Source of the DNA: a virus
Lineage: Duplodnaviria > Heunggongvirae > Uroviricota > Caudoviricetes
Virus record (IMG/VR): IMGVR_UViG_2529292882_000018
Location: 1 to 34,246 of that record
DNA: 34,246 nt
Reading direction: 5' to 3' (one strand)
Shown here: positions 1,908-31,198 of the stretch, piece after piece
Numbering within the stretch: the first letter of the stretch is position 1
How the letters are laid out: every line of letters begins with the position of its first letter
Program-made: the position numbers and the translations under genes
The notes under the pieces: generated by a model
Told to the model about the DNA's origin: nothing
The model's database searches: none
What the model saw: the letters and a program-made list of their open reading frames with translations, nothing else

Positions 1908-2426
1908 CTTAAATCCTCCTAAATCTGGATTAATGATTTCTTAAAAAAGAGCGTTAACCGCTCACTATTATTTATATGGGGATTGTATTTTATTTTTCAA
2001 CCCCTCACATTTATCTCTTATATATGTATTTATAACAGAGATATGTTAAAATGTTATTCAGATGTTATCAGACGTGTTAAATGTGTTAAACCGCAGCACG
2101 AATTGCTAAAGAGAAGAACACGAATTAACCAAATTGATGTTTATTCAATCAATTTAGAAAATTGCATAGCACTTTTTGCTAAAGCGGTGAGCATTAATTG
2201 AGCTATGAATTGTAAAGATTTGTTACAAGATTTTCTCTCAGATCCAAATCTTCACAAACATATAACAATTTAACACGATGATAACAATAGGAAGGAAAAT
2301 CGGTAAATTTTCACTTTCAATACAAATATTATACCACATTTTTTCTCGAATTGTCAAGTATAGCACCAAACCTACATAGTGTCAAGAAAGGACTTTCAAA
2401 CCTACACTAGCCCTACACTATGAAAA

Positions 2427-2612
2427 TTGCCCCTGAATTTTGCCCCTGAACCAAAATCCCCTAGATTTCACTATCCCATTTTTGCCCCTGAAACCTACTA
2501 TTTTTGCCCCTGAAATTCTGGGAAACAGTGATTTTGCCCCTCATTTTTGCCCCTGAAATGCCAATAATTGCCCCTGAAAATCTAATTTTTGCCCCTGAAA
2601 TTTGCCCCCGAA
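2427..2612. repeat. array of nine direct 11-bp repeats TTGCCCCTGAA (seven exact, two one-base variants)
   Basis: Copies start at 2427, 2440, 2482, 2504, 2534(variant), 2547, 2568, 2589, 2602(variant); spacing 13-42 bp; inverted variant copy at 2655-2665; same 11-mer forms the left arm of the terminator at 5125. Confidence 0.85.
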
Positions 2613-2813
2613 AAGGATTGGTAAGAAAAACTCTTTATAAAACATTGACTTAGTGAGGGGCAAAAACGGGGAATCGGGCGTGCATAGATATTATATGACA
2701 CATTCGCTACGCTCATGTGTAAAACCAAAAACAACAAATAACCAAAAAGATATTAGGAGGGCGTAGCCCGACTGCGCGAAGCGCTAACCAATTACTTCTA
2801 GTAACACTAATTT

Positions 2814-3036
2814 AAACTAGATGATACTAGATGGTCTTAGAAGGAATTAACTAGTTTGCTCGCTCGCTTCGCTCACTCTCAAACGTCTGCGACGCCACTG
2901 CGTGGCATCGAGAATCACTTCTGAAAGGATTTTCTTGAAAGGGATTTTAAACTAGTTACTAACTGATTCTAGAAAGATAGTAATAATCACTTTGAAGATA
3001 ATAGTAGTTAACTGGTTACTAGATGATTCTAGATCA
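2814..3036. repeat. three copies of a ~20-27 bp CTAG-rich element (core ACTAG-TGAT-CTAGA)
   Basis: Copies at about 2814-2844, 2949-2976 and 3009-3036; eight CTAG tetranucleotides within roughly 250 bp of non-coding DNA. Confidence 0.55.
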
Positions 3037-3293
3037 CTTTAATGATCATGAAAGGTATTGGTATCCCTTCGGGATTGCAACCTTCGGTTGCTAAATTGCT
3101 TCCTAATTATTATTTCTCCAAAAGAAAGATTCTTATATTCTAAAGATACTTCTTCGTTTTGATGATGATTTAATCAAAATCTATGAAGGAGGCGAAGCCG
3201 ACTGAATACCAATTCCTTTCAAATTAGACAAAAATTTCTCGTTATAAATAATAGTGAACTTACTTTGATTCACTTTTTTAGAGGATTTCCACT

Positions 3294-3746
3294 ATGATCA
3301 ATACTAAAACTCCTTTCATTCTTCTGGGTCTGAACCATGATGATAATCTGGCTATGATGCATGTTTTCGCTAATCGTGGTTATAACATCATTCGTCATTC
3401 CGAAGACTCCAATTTCTCAACTGCTTTCTATGCTCTTAAACGTAATGGTCGCCCTACGGTGATCGTAGACTGCTTTACTGATGAAGGTCGTGAACAATAC
3501 AACAACATTCCGGCAATTATTGTTCGTGATGACCTGCCGTTTGATGTTCGTGAATATGACGTTGATTTAGGCTCTTACTATGGGATCGCCGATCTTGACC
3601 AGATTATGGCTGATTACGGTAAACAACCCGCTCAGGAAGCCCCAGAACACGATGAACAAGACGAAGATGACGACGACTACACACCAATCTGTTTCTCTTC
3701 TCACGGTGGCTTCTACGGTTACGATGAAGGCTTAGATATGCTGTAA
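3294..3746 (+). CDS. acidic hypothetical protein
   Basis: 150-aa ORF; strongly acidic with C-terminal EHDEQDEDDDDY run; leader shares a 22-bp element with the gene at 30200. Confidence 0.6.
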   Translation: MINTKTPFILLGLNHDDNLAMMHVFANRGYNIIRHSEDSNFSTAFYALKRNGRPTVIVDCFTDEGREQYNNIPAIIVRDDLPFDVREYDVDLGSYYGIADLDQIMADYGKQPAQEAPEHDEQDEDDDDYTPICFSSHGGFYGYDEGLDML

Positions 3747-5116: not shown

Positions 5117-5124
5117 TAATTTTT

Positions 5125-5149
5125 GCCCCTGAATTTCAGGGGCTTTTTT
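5125..5149 (+). terminator. intrinsic terminator
   Basis: GCCCCTGAA / TTCAGGGGC inverted repeat followed by TTTTTT directly after the Rha-like gene. Confidence 0.8.
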
Positions 5150-5280: not shown

Positions 5281-5514
5281 TCAAAAACCTGTTGCTTCTA
5301 CGATCTGACCATCACCGATCTGAACATAGAATTTAATGTCTAACTTCTTCATATTCTTATAGAATTGGGCGATTGAGATCCCATGTTCACTAAGAATCTG
5401 TTCTTTCGCTTCCTTACCACGATCCGCTGTATAGTAAGCGTAGGCAATATCAGCCATCTGTTCAGCGTTAAAACGGGCAGGACGACCGCGAGTAGCTTTA
5501 GTAGTCATAGTCAT
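5281..5514 (-). CDS. small putative HTH DNA-binding protein (paralog of 1725-1907)
   Basis: Track ORF 5281-5541 begins at GTG; an ATG at 5514 with GGAGA RBS gives MTMTTKATRGRPARF...; C-terminal FYKNMKKLDIKF motif shared with the 60-aa protein. Confidence 0.5.
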   Translation of the reverse strand: MTMTTKATRGRPARFNAEQMADIAYAYYTADRGKEAKEQILSEHGISIAQFYKNMKKLDIKFYVQIGDGQIVEATGF

Positions 5515-5543
5515 TTTCTCCAAATTAAAGTGAATGTTCACCT

Positions 5544-6146
5544 TTATTTAGAGGACTTACATTTTATCGGAAAAAGTTCTCCATCGTCAATACTCATAAA
5601 GAACTCTGCCTTAATCCCGTACTTCTTCAACCGTGAATAGTATGTACCCCGACTTATATCAACCTTGCGAAGCACTTCAAAGAACCCTTTAGGATCGTTG
5701 TAATAGTGGCTATAACGCACGTTAGCGAGTTCAACGAATAGTTCCCTTGTATCACCATAGCCTTTCTTGAAAGCCTCGTTACGATAGCGTGTAATTGCGT
5801 GATTCAATCTCTTCTGTTTCAACACTTCTCGGATCGGCTTCCACTGCAACCGATAGATAGGACCGTCATCCACTCGATAATAACGCTTGATATCAAAATC
5901 AAACCAATCTCGGACTCTCCGAAACTCTGTATGTGATGTTCTATGCTTCTTAAAGAAGTTGTGAACGTCTGTATAACCATTATCGCGGTAAAACTCTATT
6001 AAAATCTCTTTCGCTTCCTCACGACTAAAGCCAGATGTTGTGTAGTCGGTTTTTAAATGCTTATGCTTAACTGGTAAACGATATTCATGATCGGTACAAG
6101 ACAAGGCTAATTCTAATTCATCTCTTTGTTGCTGATTAATTAGCAT
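5544..6146 (-). CDS. hypothetical basic protein with C-terminal HTH-like motif
   Basis: 200-aa ORF with AAGGGGGG RBS; C-terminal [16 protein letters not shown] resembles the HTH of the two small paralogs; arginine/lysine rich. Confidence 0.5.
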
Positions 6147-6234: not shown

Positions 6235-8139
6235 ATGAAACTGATTTCTAATAAGGCCAAATTAAAAAAGATTCTCAGAAATGCAGCCAAATATATTACG
6301 CCACCGCCTAAACTCCTTCCTTCGGAATGGTGCGAAGCGAATATGGTGCTGGTAGATGGTCCTCAAGCTGGGGATAAAGTTAAATTGCTGTCATTTCAGA
6401 AAGGCATGATTGATGCTCCTTTCCTTGAGAACAAGAAAAAGTATGTTCTGATGACCAGTGCGCAGATCGGAAAGACTACCATCTTGAACGGCATCCTGTT
6501 TAACCAGATGGCTAACGATCCATGCAATATGATTATCGGACAATCAACCGCTAAAGAAATGTCTCAATATCTCGCTGGTAAGATCCGACCGTCTATCGAA
6601 GCATGTGATGCATTAAAAGACGTGGTTACAGACAAGAATGATCGCAATGCGGTTAACAACAATAACCAGCTACAGCTAAAAACGAATCACTTCCTTTACA
6701 TGGTATCGCTTACCAGTCCATCAACCCTACGCGGTAAGACCGCAAAGGTTGGATTACTTGACGAAATCGATGCTGCTACAGCCTCAGAAGAAGGTGATCC
6801 GGTGGCACTGGCTGCTAACCGTTTAACTACCTTTGGCGATGAAGGTCGATTAGTCGTATCCAGTACCCCGACCAGTAAGCTGGGAAGCATTAACCAGCAA
6901 TGGTTATCAAGTGATATGCGTATGTTTTTTGTTCCGTGTCCTCATTGCGGGGAACACCAGGTGATCGAGTGGGAAAACGTTCAATTTGAATGGCGTAACA
7001 TCGATGGTAAGAACTTACCCGATCCTGATACCGCTCGTTATATTTGCCCCCACTGTAAGAACGCATGGACCGAAGGGGAACGAATCAGGGCAGTAGCGCA
7101 AGGCGAGTGGAGAGCAACCCGTGAAAGTGAAGTAGCAGGATTCTGGATTAGCCGTCTGTATTCACCTTTCAGTAGTATCCGCGCTTGTGTGGTTGATTTT
7201 AGTCATGCGTGGCAATCCTTTGATTTACAATCATTTTATAACACCGTGTTAGGTAAGGTATACGACGATCAGGACACGGCAGTAGAAGCAAATGAACTGG
7301 AACAACTCAAAACAGATGTTTCTATCGAGAATATCCCTGATGACGTGATTTTCTTATGTGCGGGTACTGACCAGCAATTAGATCGCGCAGAAACTACCAT
7401 CTTAGGTGTAGCGAAAGATAAGGTTTACATTCTGGATCACCGCAGCTTTTACGATCATAACTGTGAACGATATGAATCCCCTGTATGGGATAGATTAATC
7501 AACTTCCATAAAACCAAATTTACTACTGTATCGGGTGATCGTGTTCCTATGCTCGCCAGCTTCCTTGATACATCGAACGGTCGATTCACTCAAGCTGGAT
7601 ACCGTATTTGCGGCAAGTGGAAGAACTTACACGCTATCAAAGGTAGTTCTGCTGGTAACGCTCCGATCATTCCGGTTAAACCTACCCGCACAGGTGGTCA
7701 TGAATTGCTTATGTTGGGTGTTAACGTGGGTAAAACTGCATTTCGTGAAATGTTGGCTAGGAACCTGAAAGATAATCCTCATATTGCCTTAGAAATATCA
7801 GACACCGTTCCTGATGATTATCTCGATCAGCTTTTAAGTGAATCTGTTAAGCGTACTACTACTGGCGTGAGATGGGTAAAAAATCCAGGCGTTAGGAACG
7901 AGGCGCTCGACTGTGCCGTGTATGCTACAGCGGCTTCTCGCTACGTCCTTTCAAAAATGTCATGGGATAAACTCATCGCAATGAAAGACAGCTTAAACCG
8001 TGTTGTCGAAGAACCCGTAAAAGCTCCTAAATCGCAATCTAACGAGCAAACCGAAGAAACTAAGCCAATCACACGACCACAACGTAAAAACATCGCCAGA
8101 CGTCCAAATAGAGGCCGTAGTTGGGTAACATCGTTCTAA
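6235..8139 (+). CDS. terL: terminase large subunit, lambda GpA type
   Basis: 634-aa ORF; Walker A-like SAQIGKT; blocks [35 protein letters not shown] and [13 protein letters not shown] match lambda gpA blocks as I recall them. Confidence 0.9.
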
Positions 8140-14092: not shown

Positions 14093-17000
14093 ATGCAATC
14101 AATCCAATTTAAACGAACTAATGTTTCTGGCAAAAAGCCAACGCCGGAACAATTACAGGTCGGTGAGGTGGCAATCAACCTTAAAGACCATGTTATTTTT
14201 ACCAAAGACCGAGATCATGAAGTAGTTCAAATCTCTGTTTCTCCTGAAACTCACGCGGCACTAGAATCTAAAGTTGATGCTAACAAACAAGAATTGGATA
14301 GCACAATTGCAGTAAATGACCGCAATATTCACGCTAAAGTAGATGAAATTAAACAAACTACTGATTCTACTATCGCAGCAAATCATGCAGAAATTAACAA
14401 TAAAGTTGATGTAATTAAACGCGAAACCGACGCGACAATCGAAGCTAATAAAAATAAAGCTGCTTCCGATCTTGCTGGTGTTAAAGCTGAATTGTCGGAT
14501 ACCATCAACGCTAATAAAAATGCGGCTGCTGTAGCAACTCAGGAACTGGACACCCGCATCAATAAAAAAGTTGATGATATTAAATCCCGTACAGATGCAA
14601 CCATCGCAAGCAATGACAAAGCAATCAATGACAAAGTTGATTTGATTAAGACAGAAACTGACCGCACTATCGCAGCAAATAAAGTCTATGCGGAAAATCA
14701 GTTAACTGACACCTACAATAACCTTACTGGTGTGATTGCAGCTAATAAGCAAGAGGCAGCGGATAACGTTGCGGCATTAACCCGTGATGTTGAAGCCAAA
14801 AATACAGCAATTCATAGCAAAGTTGACAATAACAAGTCTTACACTGATTCTGAACTGGCACGTTTAGAAAGCCGTATTGATGCAGCCGATGGATCTGCTG
14901 ATGGCAAGTACATCAAAAAACACGTAAACACTTATACTGATGGTTATTTGCTGTCTAAGACCGCAAACTATTTTGATGATCCAAATGCGCGTAATCTTGA
15001 TTACTTTGGTGCATTCCGCATGAATGACCTGGCGGGTCATATTGCAATGATCTTGCATGTTCCGCATCCATCTGGTGTTAATCATGCTCGTGGCTTTGAG
15101 TTCACTTATGGGTCTAATCCACATGCTACTGTAAGAACATACGGCTATGATGAATTAGGTAATTTGTCATATTCTCACCGCATGTATCATGAAGGTGATA
15201 AACCTACTCCGGCTGAAATTGGCGCATATTCGAAAGCAGAAATTGACCGGATGTTCCAGAAGACCATCAACTTTGGTGTAGAAACTGGATGGTTTAAAAT
15301 TGCTACCGCCTTTATTCCGCAAAATGACGGACGTAGCTTGAAAATTAGATTGATTGGTGGAAATGGGTGGAACGTAGGACAAACTGGACAATGTAATATT
15401 ATTGAACTTGTTATAAGGACTAGCAACGGTTCGCCTAAAGGAATTAACTTTGTTGCGTATCATCATGTTTCTGGTTACGAAAATCAATTTTGTGCCATTA
15501 ATACAGGTGATGACACTTATGATATCTATGCATATTACTTCGAATTTACTAATATGGTAATGGCTGAATATCAAGCGTCCAGCGATGTTAATTTAACTGT
15601 ACTTGATCGACCTGAATATGTAGGCGATAAACCTGTAGCTGACCATATCTATGATGCATATACAATACACTCCTTTAACAGTTTCAGTAACCGTGGAACG
15701 TTAAATTTTGCTGGAAACCATCAAGGCCAATATGACATTGAGCATATGAACGAACAACCGACAAATGCTAAAAAGATGTTGCGTCGGTTTAGAAGCTCTG
15801 CCCTCGCGACAATCTGGCATGAAACCGTTGATGATAACGCATATCGTCTTGCCACTGGCGGTACAGATTCAGGTCAACAATTATTGCTGACAACAACCGG
15901 GTTACATGTCAAGAGATTAACATTGGATGGCGGTGCTGCGGGTGGAAATGCTGGTATTGATATTCGTCGAGGACCAAACGAAGCAAGCCATTTTAATTTT
16001 ATGGATTATCGCACTGGTCAAGATGTTCGTAATGGCTGGTTTGGTTTTGGTGATTTGACGACCAAAGATTTTATTTGGTGTAACGATAACGGTCAAAACT
16101 CGATAAACTTGATTGAAAACGGTGAATTACATATTACTGGTGGTAAAGGCCAGAAAATTGTAATGAATAGCGAAGTCGCATTGTCTGAAAATGCTCGTTT
16201 GGCTGTTAAAGGTGGTAATTATGGCTTAATTTTTAGAAATGATGGTACTAGTTTCCATATACTGACTACCGATTTAAAAGATTCTTTTGGAAATTGGAAT
16301 AATCGTAGACCATTCAGCTATGATTTCGCCGAAGGTGGATTAGATCTAGGTGGCACAACGACCGAACGCTGTTTACATCTGGGAATTGATGGTAGTACCC
16401 GCATCGAGGAGAACTTAGTTTTCCGATCTGGGTCGCGTCAATCAATGGACTATATTGAAATGATCCATTGGGGTAACAGTAATATCGCTCGTGACAACGT
16501 TTTGAGTATGAAAGACTCAAAAGGATTCCTTGCTGAATTTGAACGAGTGGGTGGGACTAACGGCGTTAAAACCAGATTCTTTGGTGAAACATTCACTGAT
16601 GGTACATTATACCTAAATCAGATGAATAATAGCTCTGAACGATTCTCTATCAACAATTGGGGAAATTCAGAAGTTGGACGCGCGGCAGTAATGGAAATCG
16701 GCGATTCCAAAGGTTATCACTTCTATACGGAACGTAGAACAGATAACAGTTTGATGTTTGATGTTGCTGGCGCTTTTACTGTGCATGGACCTAGCGGGAT
16801 CACTATCAAAAACTCTGATGGTGCTCGTCACATCTGGTTTAGAGATAACAGCGATACAGAAAAGGCTGTTATCTGGGCTACAGATGAGGGTATTTTACAT
16901 ATTCGCAATAACCACGGTGGACAATTTAGTCATCACTTCCAGGGTGCAATGATTAAAGCGGGAGAGCGTGTTCCATATAATAGTGAATACGCTCTTATCC

Positions 17001-17602
17001 GTGGTGATATTTCCGGTGGTGCATGGGTAGACTGGCGAGCGCGTCCGGCTGGATTGTTGGTAGACTGTCAGGACTCACGAAATCAAGCATATAACATTTG
17101 GAAAGCTACTCATTGGGGCGAACAGCACCTTGCGGCGATGGGTGTTCATGCTGGCGGTGGTAATCCTCATGTTGTATTGCATGTGGGTGGGAATGATTAT
17201 GCATTTGCATTTAACGGTGATTTTACTGCTGGTGCTGCTGTATATTGTAACGACGTTTATATTCGTTCTGACCGTCGTCTGAAAATTAATGTTGAAGACT
17301 ACGAAGAGAATGCGGTGGATAAGGTAAATAAACTCAAAGTTAAAACCTATGATAAAGTTAAATCTCTTTCTGACCGCGAAGTTATCGGCCATGAGATTGG
17401 TATTATCGCACAGGATTTGCAAGAAGTATTACCGGAAGCTGTTAGCACTTCTAGTGTCGGATCTCAGGATAACCCAGAAGAAATTTTAACAATTTCAAAC
17501 TCCGCAGTGAACGCGCTTTTAATTAAAGCGGTCCAAGAAATGAGCGAAGAAAATAAAATCCTTCGTGAACGTCTTGCTGCAATTGAGGCTAAATTAGGGT
17601 AA
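14093..17602 (+). CDS. side tail fibre / tailspike-like protein with C-terminal intramolecular chaperone (S74-type) domain
   Basis: 1169 aa; N-terminal tandem ~21-aa KVD..IK..TD.TIAAN repeats; C-terminal SDRRLKINVED...IGIIAQDLQEV... matches the auto-cleaving chaperone domain known from T5 L-shaped fibre and K1F endosialidase. Confidence 0.8.
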   Translation: MQSIQFKRTNVSGKKPTPEQLQVGEVAINLKDHVIFTKDRDHEVVQISVSPETHAALESKVDANKQELDSTIAVNDRNIHAKVDEIKQTTDSTIAANHAEINNKVDVIKRETDATIEANKNKAASDLAGVKAELSDTINANKNAAAVATQELDTRINKKVDDIKSRTDATIASNDKAINDKVDLIKTETDRTIAANKVYAENQLTDTYNNLTGVIAANKQEAADNVAALTRDVEAKNTAIHSKVDNNKSYTDSELARLESRIDAADGSADGKYIKKHVNTYTDGYLLSKTANYFDDPNARNLDYFGAFRMNDLAGHIAMILHVPHPSGVNHARGFEFTYGSNPHATVRTYGYDELGNLSYSHRMYHEGDKPTPAEIGAYSKAEIDRMFQKTINFGVETGWFKIATAFIPQNDGRSLKIRLIGGNGWNVGQTGQCNIIELVIRTSNGSPKGINFVAYHHVSGYENQFCAINTGDDTYDIYAYYFEFTNMVMAEYQASSDVNLTVLDRPEYVGDKPVADHIYDAYTIHSFNSFSNRGTLNFAGNHQGQYDIEHMNEQPTNAKKMLRRFRSSALATIWHETVDDNAYRLATGGTDSGQQLLLTTTGLHVKRLTLDGGAAGGNAGIDIRRGPNEASHFNFMDYRTGQDVRNGWFGFGDLTTKDFIWCNDNGQNSINLIENGELHITGGKGQKIVMNSEVALSENARLAVKGGNYGLIFRNDGTSFHILTTDLKDSFGNWNNRRPFSYDFAEGGLDLGGTTTERCLHLGIDGSTRIEENLVFRSGSRQSMDYIEMIHWGNSNIARDNVLSMKDSKGFLAEFERVGGTNGVKTRFFGETFTDGTLYLNQMNNSSERFSINNWGNSEVGRAAVMEIGDSKGYHFYTERRTDNSLMFDVAGAFTVHGPSGITIKNSDGARHIWFRDNSDTEKAVIWATDEGILHIRNNHGGQFSHHFQGAMIKAGERVPYNSEYALIRGDISGGAWVDWRARPAGLLVDCQDSRNQAYNIWKATHWGEQHLAAMGVHAGGGNPHVVLHVGGNDYAFAFNGDFTAGAAVYCNDVYIRSDRRLKINVEDYEENAVDKVNKLKVKTYDKVKSLSDREVIGHEIGIIAQDLQEVLPEAVSTSSVGSQDNPEEILTISNSAVNALLIKAVQEMSEENKILRERLAAIEAKLG

Positions 17603-30199: not shown

Positions 30200-31198
30200 A
30201 TGAATACTACTTTAGCAAAGGATATCGAATTTACCACAAAAAGCAAACGTGCGACCCCTCCGGTCGAATATGAAACCAGAATCATTAAAGTTTGTCAAGT
30301 GCATGGGTGGTTATACAGTGGTTTTGTGCTTCCTGTAAAGAAACCATTCCAGAACACCAAAGTTTGCATAGAAGTTAACGGAAAGGTTAAAACGCCATGT
30401 ATTAGTCATGTTCTAACTGGTCAGTTTACTGGCAAAGATAGAGTATCACCGCCTAAGAAGAAGTTTAGATTTACCGAAGAAGAACACTTAGAAAACGCTC
30501 GCAAGTTCTACAAGCCGATAGGGTGGGATGTGTTAGGTCTGGCTGAACCTTATCAGGGTGTTGACACTAAACTAATTCTTCGTTGTAAGTGCCACGGAAA
30601 GATTCACAAGAAAGGTGATTTACACAATAACCGCAGACAAGGCGGGTTAACATGCCCTTTGGTTAGGGGTGTACTTAAATCAATTCAGAATGGTAGAAAA
30701 CAGGTTATCAGAAACAAGTTTGCACAGCGCCCTATGCACTTTTATCTAATTCGTGTTGGCGAGAAGTTTTTCAAATATGGAATTACCACTCGCAAAGATC
30801 CGATGCAACGGGTAAGAGAACACCAGAAGCACACCAGCGAGAAAATCACCTTTGAATGCTCACATTTGTTTAACATTGGATGGAAAGCTGGTGATTTAGA
30901 AATGGGGATTAAAAAGAATATTCAGGGCAAGAAAATCCCACGTAAGGTAATGAATAGCGGATTCACAGAAACGCTACCGATTAGCAAGTTGAAAGATGTT
31001 AAATCATTCATCAATGAATACATCCACACCAACCCATCTAAGCCAATGTATTTTGATGATACCAACGCAATCAATCTGAACAACTACATTAGTGATGAAG
31101 ACATAGAACGAGATTTATCGCAGTGGATGAATGCACCGTTAGCTGATTTAACACCGGAAGACTTAGAACTCGATTTAAGCCCTTTAGAGGCTCTTTAA
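30200..31198 (+). CDS. Cys/His-rich protein with GIY-YIG-like (T5orf172-like) segment
   Basis: 332 aa; FYLIRVGEKFFKYGITTR...RVREHQ resembles the GIY-YIG core; N-terminal Cys/His clusters suggest zinc binding; leader shares 22-bp element with gene at 3294. Confidence 0.5.
   Translation: MNTTLAKDIEFTTKSKRATPPVEYETRIIKVCQVHGWLYSGFVLPVKKPFQNTKVCIEVNGKVKTPCISHVLTGQFTGKDRVSPPKKKFRFTEEEHLENARKFYKPIGWDVLGLAEPYQGVDTKLILRCKCHGKIHKKGDLHNNRRQGGLTCPLVRGVLKSIQNGRKQVIRNKFAQRPMHFYLIRVGEKFFKYGITTRKDPMQRVREHQKHTSEKITFECSHLFNIGWKAGDLEMGIKKNIQGKKIPRKVMNSGFTETLPISKLKDVKSFINEYIHTNPSKPMYFDDTNAINLNNYISDEDIERDLSQWMNAPLADLTPEDLELDLSPLEAL

Follow-up and report, generated by a model that had tools for sequence, protein, structure and literature searches.

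A repeat array of enterobacterial prophages that co-varies with the N-terminal domain of the coiled-coil protein P313

Which protein reads an array of short direct repeats in a gene-free part of a prophage genome, and what such an array is for, are the questions raised by IMG/VR virus record IMGVR_UViG_2529292882_000018 (Caudoviricetes), of which positions 1 to 34,246 were analysed (34,246 nucleotides; hereafter the window). The repeats, built on the 11-mer TTGCCCCTGAA, lie in a gene-free stretch of 1.4 kb (1908-3293) between the leftward P60-P313 operon and a rightward operon that starts at 3294. An original prediction made from the sequence alone regarded them as a protein-binding array and offered three functions, namely replication-origin iterons, a terminase recognition site at cos or pac, and a partition site. 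Comparison of related prophages indicates that the array is very probably a docking array for P313, a 313-aa coiled-coil protein encoded 0.8 kb to its left. As to function, the array and P313 may constitute an iteron-type origin of replication and its initiator, a reading to which a probability of about 50% is given.

Composition and conservation of the array

Exact copies of the 11-mer were found by pattern search on the + strand at positions 2427, 2440, 2482, 2504, 2547, 2568 and 2589, with a one-mismatch copy, TTGCCCCCGAA, at 2602. Across the window the search gave nine matches, compared to 0.48 expected by chance, and none of 100 shuffled sequences reached nine; one isolated exact copy lies outside the array, at 5123. 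The original prediction of seven exact and two one-base-variant copies thus holds for the exact copies and for one variant, while the second, TTGCCCCTCAT, which starts at 2534 and is the ninth copy of the array, carries two mismatches. Starts of successive cores are 13, 42, 22, 30, 13, 21, 21 and 13 bp apart and span 186 bp in total, in agreement with the predicted spacing of 13-42 bp within 190 bp. The predicted start of the array at 2371 belongs to a different motif, CCTACAYTA (Table 1). An inverted copy of the unit, TGAGGGGCAAAAA, is indeed present downstream at 2654-2666, although 42 bp and not 43 bp past the last unit. The 11-bp core is part of a unit of about 16 bp that has an invariant A at position -4. 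The units are helically phased, with a best period of 10.8 bp in a Rayleigh analysis (R 0.84-0.89, p ~2e-4 compared to random placement), and the corresponding array of Proteus shows the same property (R 0.95).

The array was correctly placed in a non-coding region, as the Prokaryotic Genome Annotation Pipeline (PGAP) gives no gene at 2423-2617 in E. coli RefSeq genomes. A 49-aa open reading frame (2504-2653) was considered as a gene and rejected; it is broken in a Salmonella orthologue by a 22-bp spacing, and its codon-phase signal is only apparent, being due to two polymorphic hot sites. Clustered regularly interspaced short palindromic repeats (CRISPR), already dismissed in the original prediction, have repeats of 23-50 bp and unique spacers of similar length. 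They do not fit units of about 16 bp with gaps of 2-31 bp between the 11-bp cores and spacers that are conserved in position among relatives.

The gene-free stretch is kept at the same place in all relatives examined, including those of Proteus, Providencia and Salmonella, where it measures 1.2-1.6 kb. In the window, 1908-3293 is conserved more than many adjacent genes. Two Salmonella loci (L133 and L134) preserve all nine units at identical spacing, with the variant units at their positions, and compared to the window the 16-bp units are 92% identical and the spacers 51-61% (Fisher 4e-10 and 5e-7). Unit number is less constant among E. coli relatives. Some have 10-11 units through tandem duplication of a 62-bp block comprising two units and a spacer, as seen at positions 580-700 of the gap of L114, and other loci have 6-8.

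Array type and the P313 N-terminal domain

For about 45 loci, every segment of the gap and every adjacent protein was scored for identity with its window counterpart, and the co-variation sample overall comprised about 50 loci from four genera. Arrays at the same place in relatives from E. coli, Salmonella, Providencia and Proteus are built on TCCCCG, ACCTACACTA, ATCCCTAG, TTTTTGTCCGTGA or ATTTTTGCCCCT. This amounts to six motif classes, or seven if the 11-mer of the window and the truncated ATTTTTGCCCCT unit are counted apart. The window array is referred to as type A, the TCCCCG array as type B and the ACCTACACTA array as type C. ETEC4090 has many TCCCCG units, partly with an exact 11-bp period. 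Arrays of nine to ten ACCTACACTA units are present in three E. coli, one of them O55:H7 DEC5A. In Proteus mirabilis the units are of the ATCCCTAG type; they number at least 15 (15 by pattern) and form three clusters, between which A+T-rich ATGATTTT tandem repeats are found. The long spacer of the window array (2451-2481), and its counterparts in relatives, contain ATCCCCTAG and TATCCCA, resembling the type B and Proteus units; a common ancestry of the motif classes, or a second binder common to them, is possible.

In all of the approximately 50 loci, the type of the P313 N-terminal domain matches the type of the array. The array (2420-2680) and the segment that follows it (2680-2920) are present if and only if the N-domain is of the window type, and window-type N-domains (at least 98% identical) go with TTGCCCCTGAA arrays. 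Among E. coli members of the P313 family, proteins of 330-335 aa accompany ACCTACACTA, and a pair of 333 and 337 aa accompanies TCCCCG. The relation is graded in Salmonella: two proteins with N-domains 75-78% identical to that of P313 have arrays of the same 11-mer, one at 50% identity has ATTTTTGCCCCT units, and one at 37% identity has TTTTTGTCC(G/T)TGA. As the N-domain diverges, the motif passes from TTGCCCCTGAA through TTTTTGCCCCT to TTGTCCGTGA, a graded series of protein-DNA recognition. A Providencia protein has an N-domain 66% identical to that of E. coli type C combined with the other of two unrelated C-terminal types; a ACCTACACTA array was predicted for it and then found. Likewise, one of the two Salmonella proteins with 75-78% identical N-domains has the other C-terminal type and the same 11-mer. 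Because both proteins keep their motif despite the other C-terminus, the motif follows the N-domain only.

Natural recombinants separate the array from its neighbours. In nine loci (L114-L119, L005, L016 and L018) P60 and the segment 1763-2433 are replaced while P313 and the array are kept. In L110 and L111, P60 (100% and 87% identical) and 1908-2200 are kept, and the protein gene and the array are both replaced. The loci L114 (type A), L109 (type C) and L108 (type B) share a common left flank up to the first repeat, and therefore the array behaves as a precise cassette. P60, P150, P110, Rha, P86, P200, TerS and TerL were each considered as the array binder and rejected, as each varies independently of array type. 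This also disposes of the small helix-turn-helix (HTH) proteins that the original prediction had named as possible binders, P60 in particular. That the repeats form a protein-binding array is strongly supported, the motif co-varying with the N-domain and the units and their spacing being conserved while the spacers drift. On these comparisons, we infer physical binding of P313 to the array; origin function, hairpin priming and host recruitment, discussed below, are more speculative.

P313 itself is predicted (AlphaFold2 model) to begin with a variable alpha/beta domain (residues ~1-170), followed by a long coiled coil (182-236), a disordered linker of acidic character and, at the C-terminus, a helix that is short and conserved. 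The family is modular, combining a variable N-domain, coiled coil and acidic linker with one of the two C-terminal types. It is also small, with only 12 representatives among 1.84 billion proteins. No match to P313 was found in Pfam, PHROG or NCBIfam, nor by tblastn against phages and against 72,556 plasmids, and the first homologue search returned only 99%-identical E. coli copies. A role as HUH rolling-circle Rep was rejected, as the fold gives no support. Many of the homologues (P0124, P0128, P0135, P0137, P0139 and the L108/L109 proteins) end in -AA, -KAA, -RAA, -YAA or -VA, unlike the window protein, which ends in YCQ. These ssrA-like ClpXP tails suggest, from sequence, regulated proteolysis of the homologues.

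The copy of the 11-mer at 5123 stands apart. As the original prediction noted, it forms the left arm of a terminator, with the 11-mer at 5123-5133, and the match to the array unit extends over 16 nt (5118-5133). The terminator is unchanged in type B and type C prophages and is therefore tied to the end of the Rha gene and not to the array type. Accordingly, it was rejected as a tenth functional site and lends no support to the array, with which it does not co-vary; this copy is probably outside the array system. Several GCCCCT-NN-GGGGC hairpins occur in the gap of Salmonella relatives, and the core GCCCCT may be of hairpin origin.

Candidate functions of the array

Among the three functions originally offered, that of origin iterons is the most probable. 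Read leftward, the region presents hairpins, an inverted unit, an A+T-rich block, phased direct repeats, a promoter and the binder gene. The same order is the layout of iteron replicons such as pSC101, P1 and RSF1010, in which the array lies upstream of the promoter of the initiator operon. The A+T-rich block directly right of the array is invariant in E. coli type A loci and recognisable in Salmonella, and clearer A+T-rich tandem repeats separate the repeat clusters not only in Proteus, as described above, but also in type B. Beyond it, the cassette-specific segment 2681-2920 is 95-100% conserved. Half of the ten window matches to GCGNAGC fall in 2706-3198, on both strands, and the stem of hairpin 1 shows compensatory changes between types (GGGC/GCCC, CGGC/GCCG and GGCC/GGCC). 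Hairpins of the d(GCGNAGC) type are known from the primase entry sites of phage G4 and of RSF1010 ssiA (PMC13037366). The putative DNA-binding proteins P60, P75 and P200 would be available for transcription control, with P60 co-varying with the promoter region, and this, too, is counted in favour of the origin.

In the proposed mechanism, the N-domains of P313 would dock on the nine repeats, and with the sites on approximately one helix face, the coiled coil would join the bound P313 molecules into one large nucleoprotein complex. With the array as iterons and P313 as initiator, this complex would form the replication origin of the phage. Strand opening would take place at the adjacent A+T-rich block, possibly aided by upstream negative supercoiling from the strong promoters beside the array that would drive P60-P313. 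The mini-hairpins beyond the block, on both strands, could then serve as priming signals. No replication gene (helicase, primase or polymerase) is recognisable among the prophage proteins scanned. By elimination, this adds to the case for the origin, and for this reason the C-terminus of P313 is proposed to recruit host replication proteins.

Two known systems in which specificity moves as a module resemble this scheme. The N-domain of lambda O is exchanged together with the iterons of ori-lambda as one module. As at ori-lambda, phased repeats lie by an A+T-rich stretch with a strong early promoter nearby, and the host replisome would be used. O is likewise modular, with an N-domain that co-varies with the repeats and a C-terminal part that recruits partners. 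However, lambda has four 19-mers that contain inverted repeats and lie inside the O gene, in contrast to the nine asymmetric 16-bp units of the prophage, 0.8 kb away from the P313 gene. P313 resembles O neither in sequence nor detectably in fold, and a P-like loader is not recognisable. In the PLE satellites of Vibrio cholerae, the RepA N-domain and the iteron origin are exchanged as one module between elements that are otherwise alike (PMC8263062). There, as in the scheme proposed here, the origin is non-coding, and iterons are restructured in natural variants (PMC8263062; PMC7145576). The PLE origin differs in having three semi-palindromic iterons of about 30 bp and a RepA_N initiator, a Pfam family that P313 does not match. 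Furthermore, an Odn-like chimeric, origin-directed nuclease was looked for and rejected, as no prophage nuclease with a P313 N-domain was found. The oriV of RSF1010 has its parts in the same order, with direct-repeat iterons, then an A+T-rich stretch and, next to it, small mini-hairpin-type hairpins on opposite strands (PMC13037366). Unlike the prophage, in which none of these is recognisable, RSF1010 encodes its own helicase, primase and RepC; hairpin priming in the prophage is putative.

Several observations weigh against an origin. P313 matches no recognised initiator family or fold (Rep_3, RepA_N, lambda O, RepC and others), and the confidence of its model is only moderate (predicted local distance difference test, pLDDT, 65). 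Host-factor sites were considered as marks of an origin and rejected: a single relaxed DnaA-box-like match at 2716-2724 is not conserved in Salmonella, and no consensus site for integration host factor (IHF) is present in the region. The A+T-rich block of type A is short. Within E. coli the repeats are 94.8% conserved compared to 90.9% for the spacers (p 0.06). In addition, the repeats of every array type are rich in C on one and the same strand. This may indicate a strand-specific constraint, on RNA or single-stranded DNA, that pure duplex binding does not explain. Lastly, co-variation and the many specificities fit a repressor/operator immunity module equally well, for which the Mu repressor provides a close architectural precedent.

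Such a module is the main rival of the origin. The array would then be a Mu-like immunity or operator array with P313 as repressor or activator. Early transcription would be controlled through a roadblock, through looping or through an effect on a weak rightward promoter adjacent to the inverted copy, and the array types would be heteroimmune variants; this is judged possible, though rather unlikely. The Mu c repressor combines an N-terminal DNA-binding domain, coiled-coil oligomerisation and a protease-sensitive C-terminus, and it binds some nine sites of 11 bp spread over about 190 bp. As with Mu O1-O3, the array is flanked by divergent operons, P60-P313 reading leftward and the one from 3294 onward reading rightward. 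A regulatory C-terminal tail of the binder is a further likeness, and several P313 homologues end in -AA, -VA or -KAA, reminiscent of ClpXP tags. Moreover, co-variation and cassette swapping are typical of immunity regions, and no other repressor is recognisable in the prophage. However, the operators of Mu overlap its early and repressor promoters. The units here, by contrast, overlap no sigma-70 promoter, as far as promoter prediction goes, and there is no sequence similarity between the two systems. Strong promoters lie 42 to about 200 bp from the array, and the strongest ones read away from it. The co-varying cassette extends about 300 bp past the sites, with hairpins on both strands, which exceeds the needs of an operator, and the P60/P75/P200 family with its co-varying P60 is a better candidate for the switch. 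A further reading is that the array acts at the RNA level, in a rightward transcript in which the repeats would be a Rho-loading (rut-like) tract or RNA-binding sites for P313 that control the downstream operon. All six motif classes are C-rich and also G-poor on the same strand, and some variants have a weak rightward promoter to the left of the array. The 600 nt downstream form unusually stable folds and include C(UUCG)G hairpins. On either strand, 2660-3295 is far more stable than shuffled sequences (z -4.9 and -8.4), and it could hold one or more structured RNAs. The window, however, has no good rightward promoter upstream of the array, phasing at about 10.8 bp and fixed spacing favour duplex DNA geometry, and there is no Rfam match, all of which makes an RNA-level element improbable.

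Of the two other functions originally offered, packaging is contradicted by the terminases. A cosB or pac site at which the small terminase binds to start packaging would agree with TerL being of the lambda gpA type, for which a cos with repeated TerS sites is expected somewhere left of TerL, and with the G+C-rich patch right of the array. However, a single TerS accession occurs in prophages of types A and B, the type C copies are 90-95% identical to it, and TerL is 98-100% identical across array types. Because the terminases are unchanged between entirely different arrays, the array cannot be their specificity site. The patch next to the array is hypervariable, unlike a cleavage site. A better candidate is present directly upstream of terS, at the position of cos in lambda, where a G+C-rich region of 300 bp with the dyad GTCGC-TAC-GCGAC is likely the cos site; overall, packaging through the array is highly improbable. 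TerS is a 183-aa protein (phrog_57, E 1.5e-16; weak Pfam Phage_Nu1) with an N-terminus resembling the Nu1 winged helix. Its gene, which with its upstream region is represented by L106 5244-6093, lies just left of the window start, 2.4 kb from the array and about 6 kb from the TerL gene, with the whole early region in between, and a DNA search with the terS region gave no match. A partition site is unlikely as well. The array would be a parC- or tubC-type centromere or anchor that segregates or positions the replicating or excised genome, with P313 as an adaptor that autoregulates its own operon. It resembles parC/ParR of plasmid R1 in its approximately ten 11-bp direct repeats on one DNA face upstream of the binder operon, for which autoregulation is plausible. 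The exact 11-bp period runs in type B and Proteus and the long coiled coil of P313 also fit. On the other hand, no ParA/ParM/TubZ-type NTPase was found among the prophage proteins scanned, all copies found are integrated, and the plasmid collection holds no P313 homologue. The binder is a 313-aa coiled-coil protein here and a small ribbon-helix-helix or winged-helix protein in R1. This leaves a centromere with a low probability.

The origin reading has a further-reaching form, which is put forward tentatively. Array and about 300 bp of hairpin DNA may be the origin cassette of an unrecognised, host-dependent phage replicon, with P313 representing a new family of initiators whose DNA-binding domain is also new; cassette and N-domain would have diversified into at least six motif classes in four genera. 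The hypervariable patch would then be the trace of conflict with origin-targeting nucleases or of replicon competition.

Neighbouring elements and prophage setting

The elements in and around the gene-free region are listed in Table 1. Its left part varies together with P60, the segment 1908-2420 (promoters included) changing with P60 independently of the array. The -35 element of the upstream promoter lies 42 bp from the first array unit. The predicted leftward promoters of the window are followed by an untranslated leader of 370-420 nt, with a hairpin and T-run (1963-1940) just before the P60 start. Other variants have an equivalent strong leftward promoter, a leader of 330-400 nt and a hairpin/T-run ahead of P60. 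This layout suggests control by regulated termination, as in phage P4 immunity. The type C motif is also found as a pair, CCTACACTAGCCCTACACTATG, adjoining the array in Salmonella L135.

Table 1. Features of the array region and of nearby genes in the window
Feature	Position	Strand	Details
P313 gene	670..1611	-	313-aa coiled-coil protein, proposed array binder; coding by codon-phase test
P60 gene	1725..1907	-	60-aa HTH-like protein, first gene of the leftward P60-P313 operon
Two tandem near-consensus sigma-70 promoters	2328..2385 (2385-2357, 2357-2328)	-	leftward to P60-P313; 12/12 and 11/12 matches, both TG
Three CCTACA(C/T)TA copies	2371..2420 (2371, 2401, 2412)	+	whole-array motif of type C relatives; overlap or flank the upstream promoter
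Repeat array	2423..2617	+	nine units of ~16 bp, consensus ATTTTTGCCCCTGAAA; three 13-bp doublets and three singles, one orientation
A+T-rich block	2620..2646		conserved, 27 bp, GTAAGAAAAACTCTTTATAAAACATTG; directly right of the array; candidate unwinding element
G-rich patch	2647..2680	-	holds the inverted unit copy; hypervariable
Cassette-specific conserved segment	2681..2920		small G+C d(GCGNAGC)-type mini-hairpins at 2706 (-), 2761 (+), 2776 (+) and 2866 (-)
Right part of gene-free region	2921..3293		common to all E. coli array types; CTAG-rich repeats, GAAAGGNATT motifs
Terminator hairpin	5123..5143	+	after the Rha-like gene; left arm is the 11-mer; hairpin 5125-5143 and T-run
TerL gene	6235-8139		large terminase, lambda gpA-type

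Right of the array, the G-rich patch exists in 24 distinct versions in 29 type A loci, with both flanks invariant. An inverted copy right of the array is also found in the Salmonella loci L133 and L135 and in the type B locus L108. The hypervariability may have arisen by template-switch mutation involving the inverted copy and the nine direct ones, or else through diversifying selection. In the common right part of the region there are two hairpins of the C(UUCG)G type (3064-3090), and an inverted repeat of 37 nt is also present (3049-3085 / 3185-3221). The GAAAGGNATT sites are located at 2386, 2610, 2923, 2937, 3050, 3211 (-) and 3308 (-). They bracket the array and represent seven of the 21 near-matches in the window and all three exact matches. 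The motif recurs in every array type, those of Proteus and Providencia included, and probably serves as the site of a conserved protein of either phage or host. Repeats rich in CTAG, a tetranucleotide that is rare in E. coli, extend over 2815-3034, with ACTAGATGATACTAGAT twice and AACTAGTTACTAACTGATTCTAGA / AACTGGTTACTAGATGATTCTAGA, and one unit is deleted in several relatives.

P60 has paralogues, likewise on the minus strand, in a 75/86-aa protein (5281-5541) and in two repeats of a 200-aa protein (5544-6146). The shared HTH-like motif, GIxxxTFyKxLKKydIK, marks P60/P75/P200 as a putative, unannotated family of small DNA-binding proteins.

The prophage is an uncharacterised, siphovirus-like, low-GC element of E. 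coli (36-38 kb, ~41% G+C) integrated at ycdX, or at hicB in other strains; its assignment to E. coli comes from exact protein matches. Related elements are present in 57 of 5,426 complete E. coli genomes (~1%), and the family extends to Salmonella, Proteus and Providencia. All copies found are chromosomally integrated and adjoin the large serine recombinase at the right end. Morphogenesis genes include a lambda-type portal, a protease-capsid fusion and siphovirus tail genes, in addition to an M15 endolysin. A 1,169-aa protein (14093-17602), annotated in RefSeq as tail fiber domain-containing, is unusual in its size and in its position between the head and tail-tube genes. Genes for T5orf172/GIY-YIG-like nucleases occur at variable positions, resembling homing-endonuclease cargo (window 30200-31198; L107 22201-23376; L131 3481-4137; L135 6839-7924). 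No close isolated phage relative was found, and a megablast search of phages with the first 8 kb of the window gave no match. A scan of the window and the gap for Rfam families (gathering and E-value thresholds) and transfer RNAs gave nothing meaningful, and a literature search on ycdX plus prophage returned no description of this element. A two-copy repeat pattern run over a genome contig collection gave 79 loci, nearly all of them chance hits or tandem repeats of other kinds, and none resembled the window.

Among the early-region proteins, family searches assigned none except the Rha-like protein and, remotely, the Nu1-like small terminase. The array is a concrete handle on an early region otherwise nearly devoid of recognisable functions, and points to where replication or a genetic switch is controlled. 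The system works like an iteron/initiator or an operator/regulator module and fits no known initiator family. It shows which orphan protein reads which DNA, and the recognition series could help to decipher a new recognition code. If the array is an origin, the prophage family would have a phage replicon from a new initiator family with exchangeable specificity cassettes. If true, this would provide, for enterobacteria, pairs of origin and initiator that are naturally orthogonal to one another.

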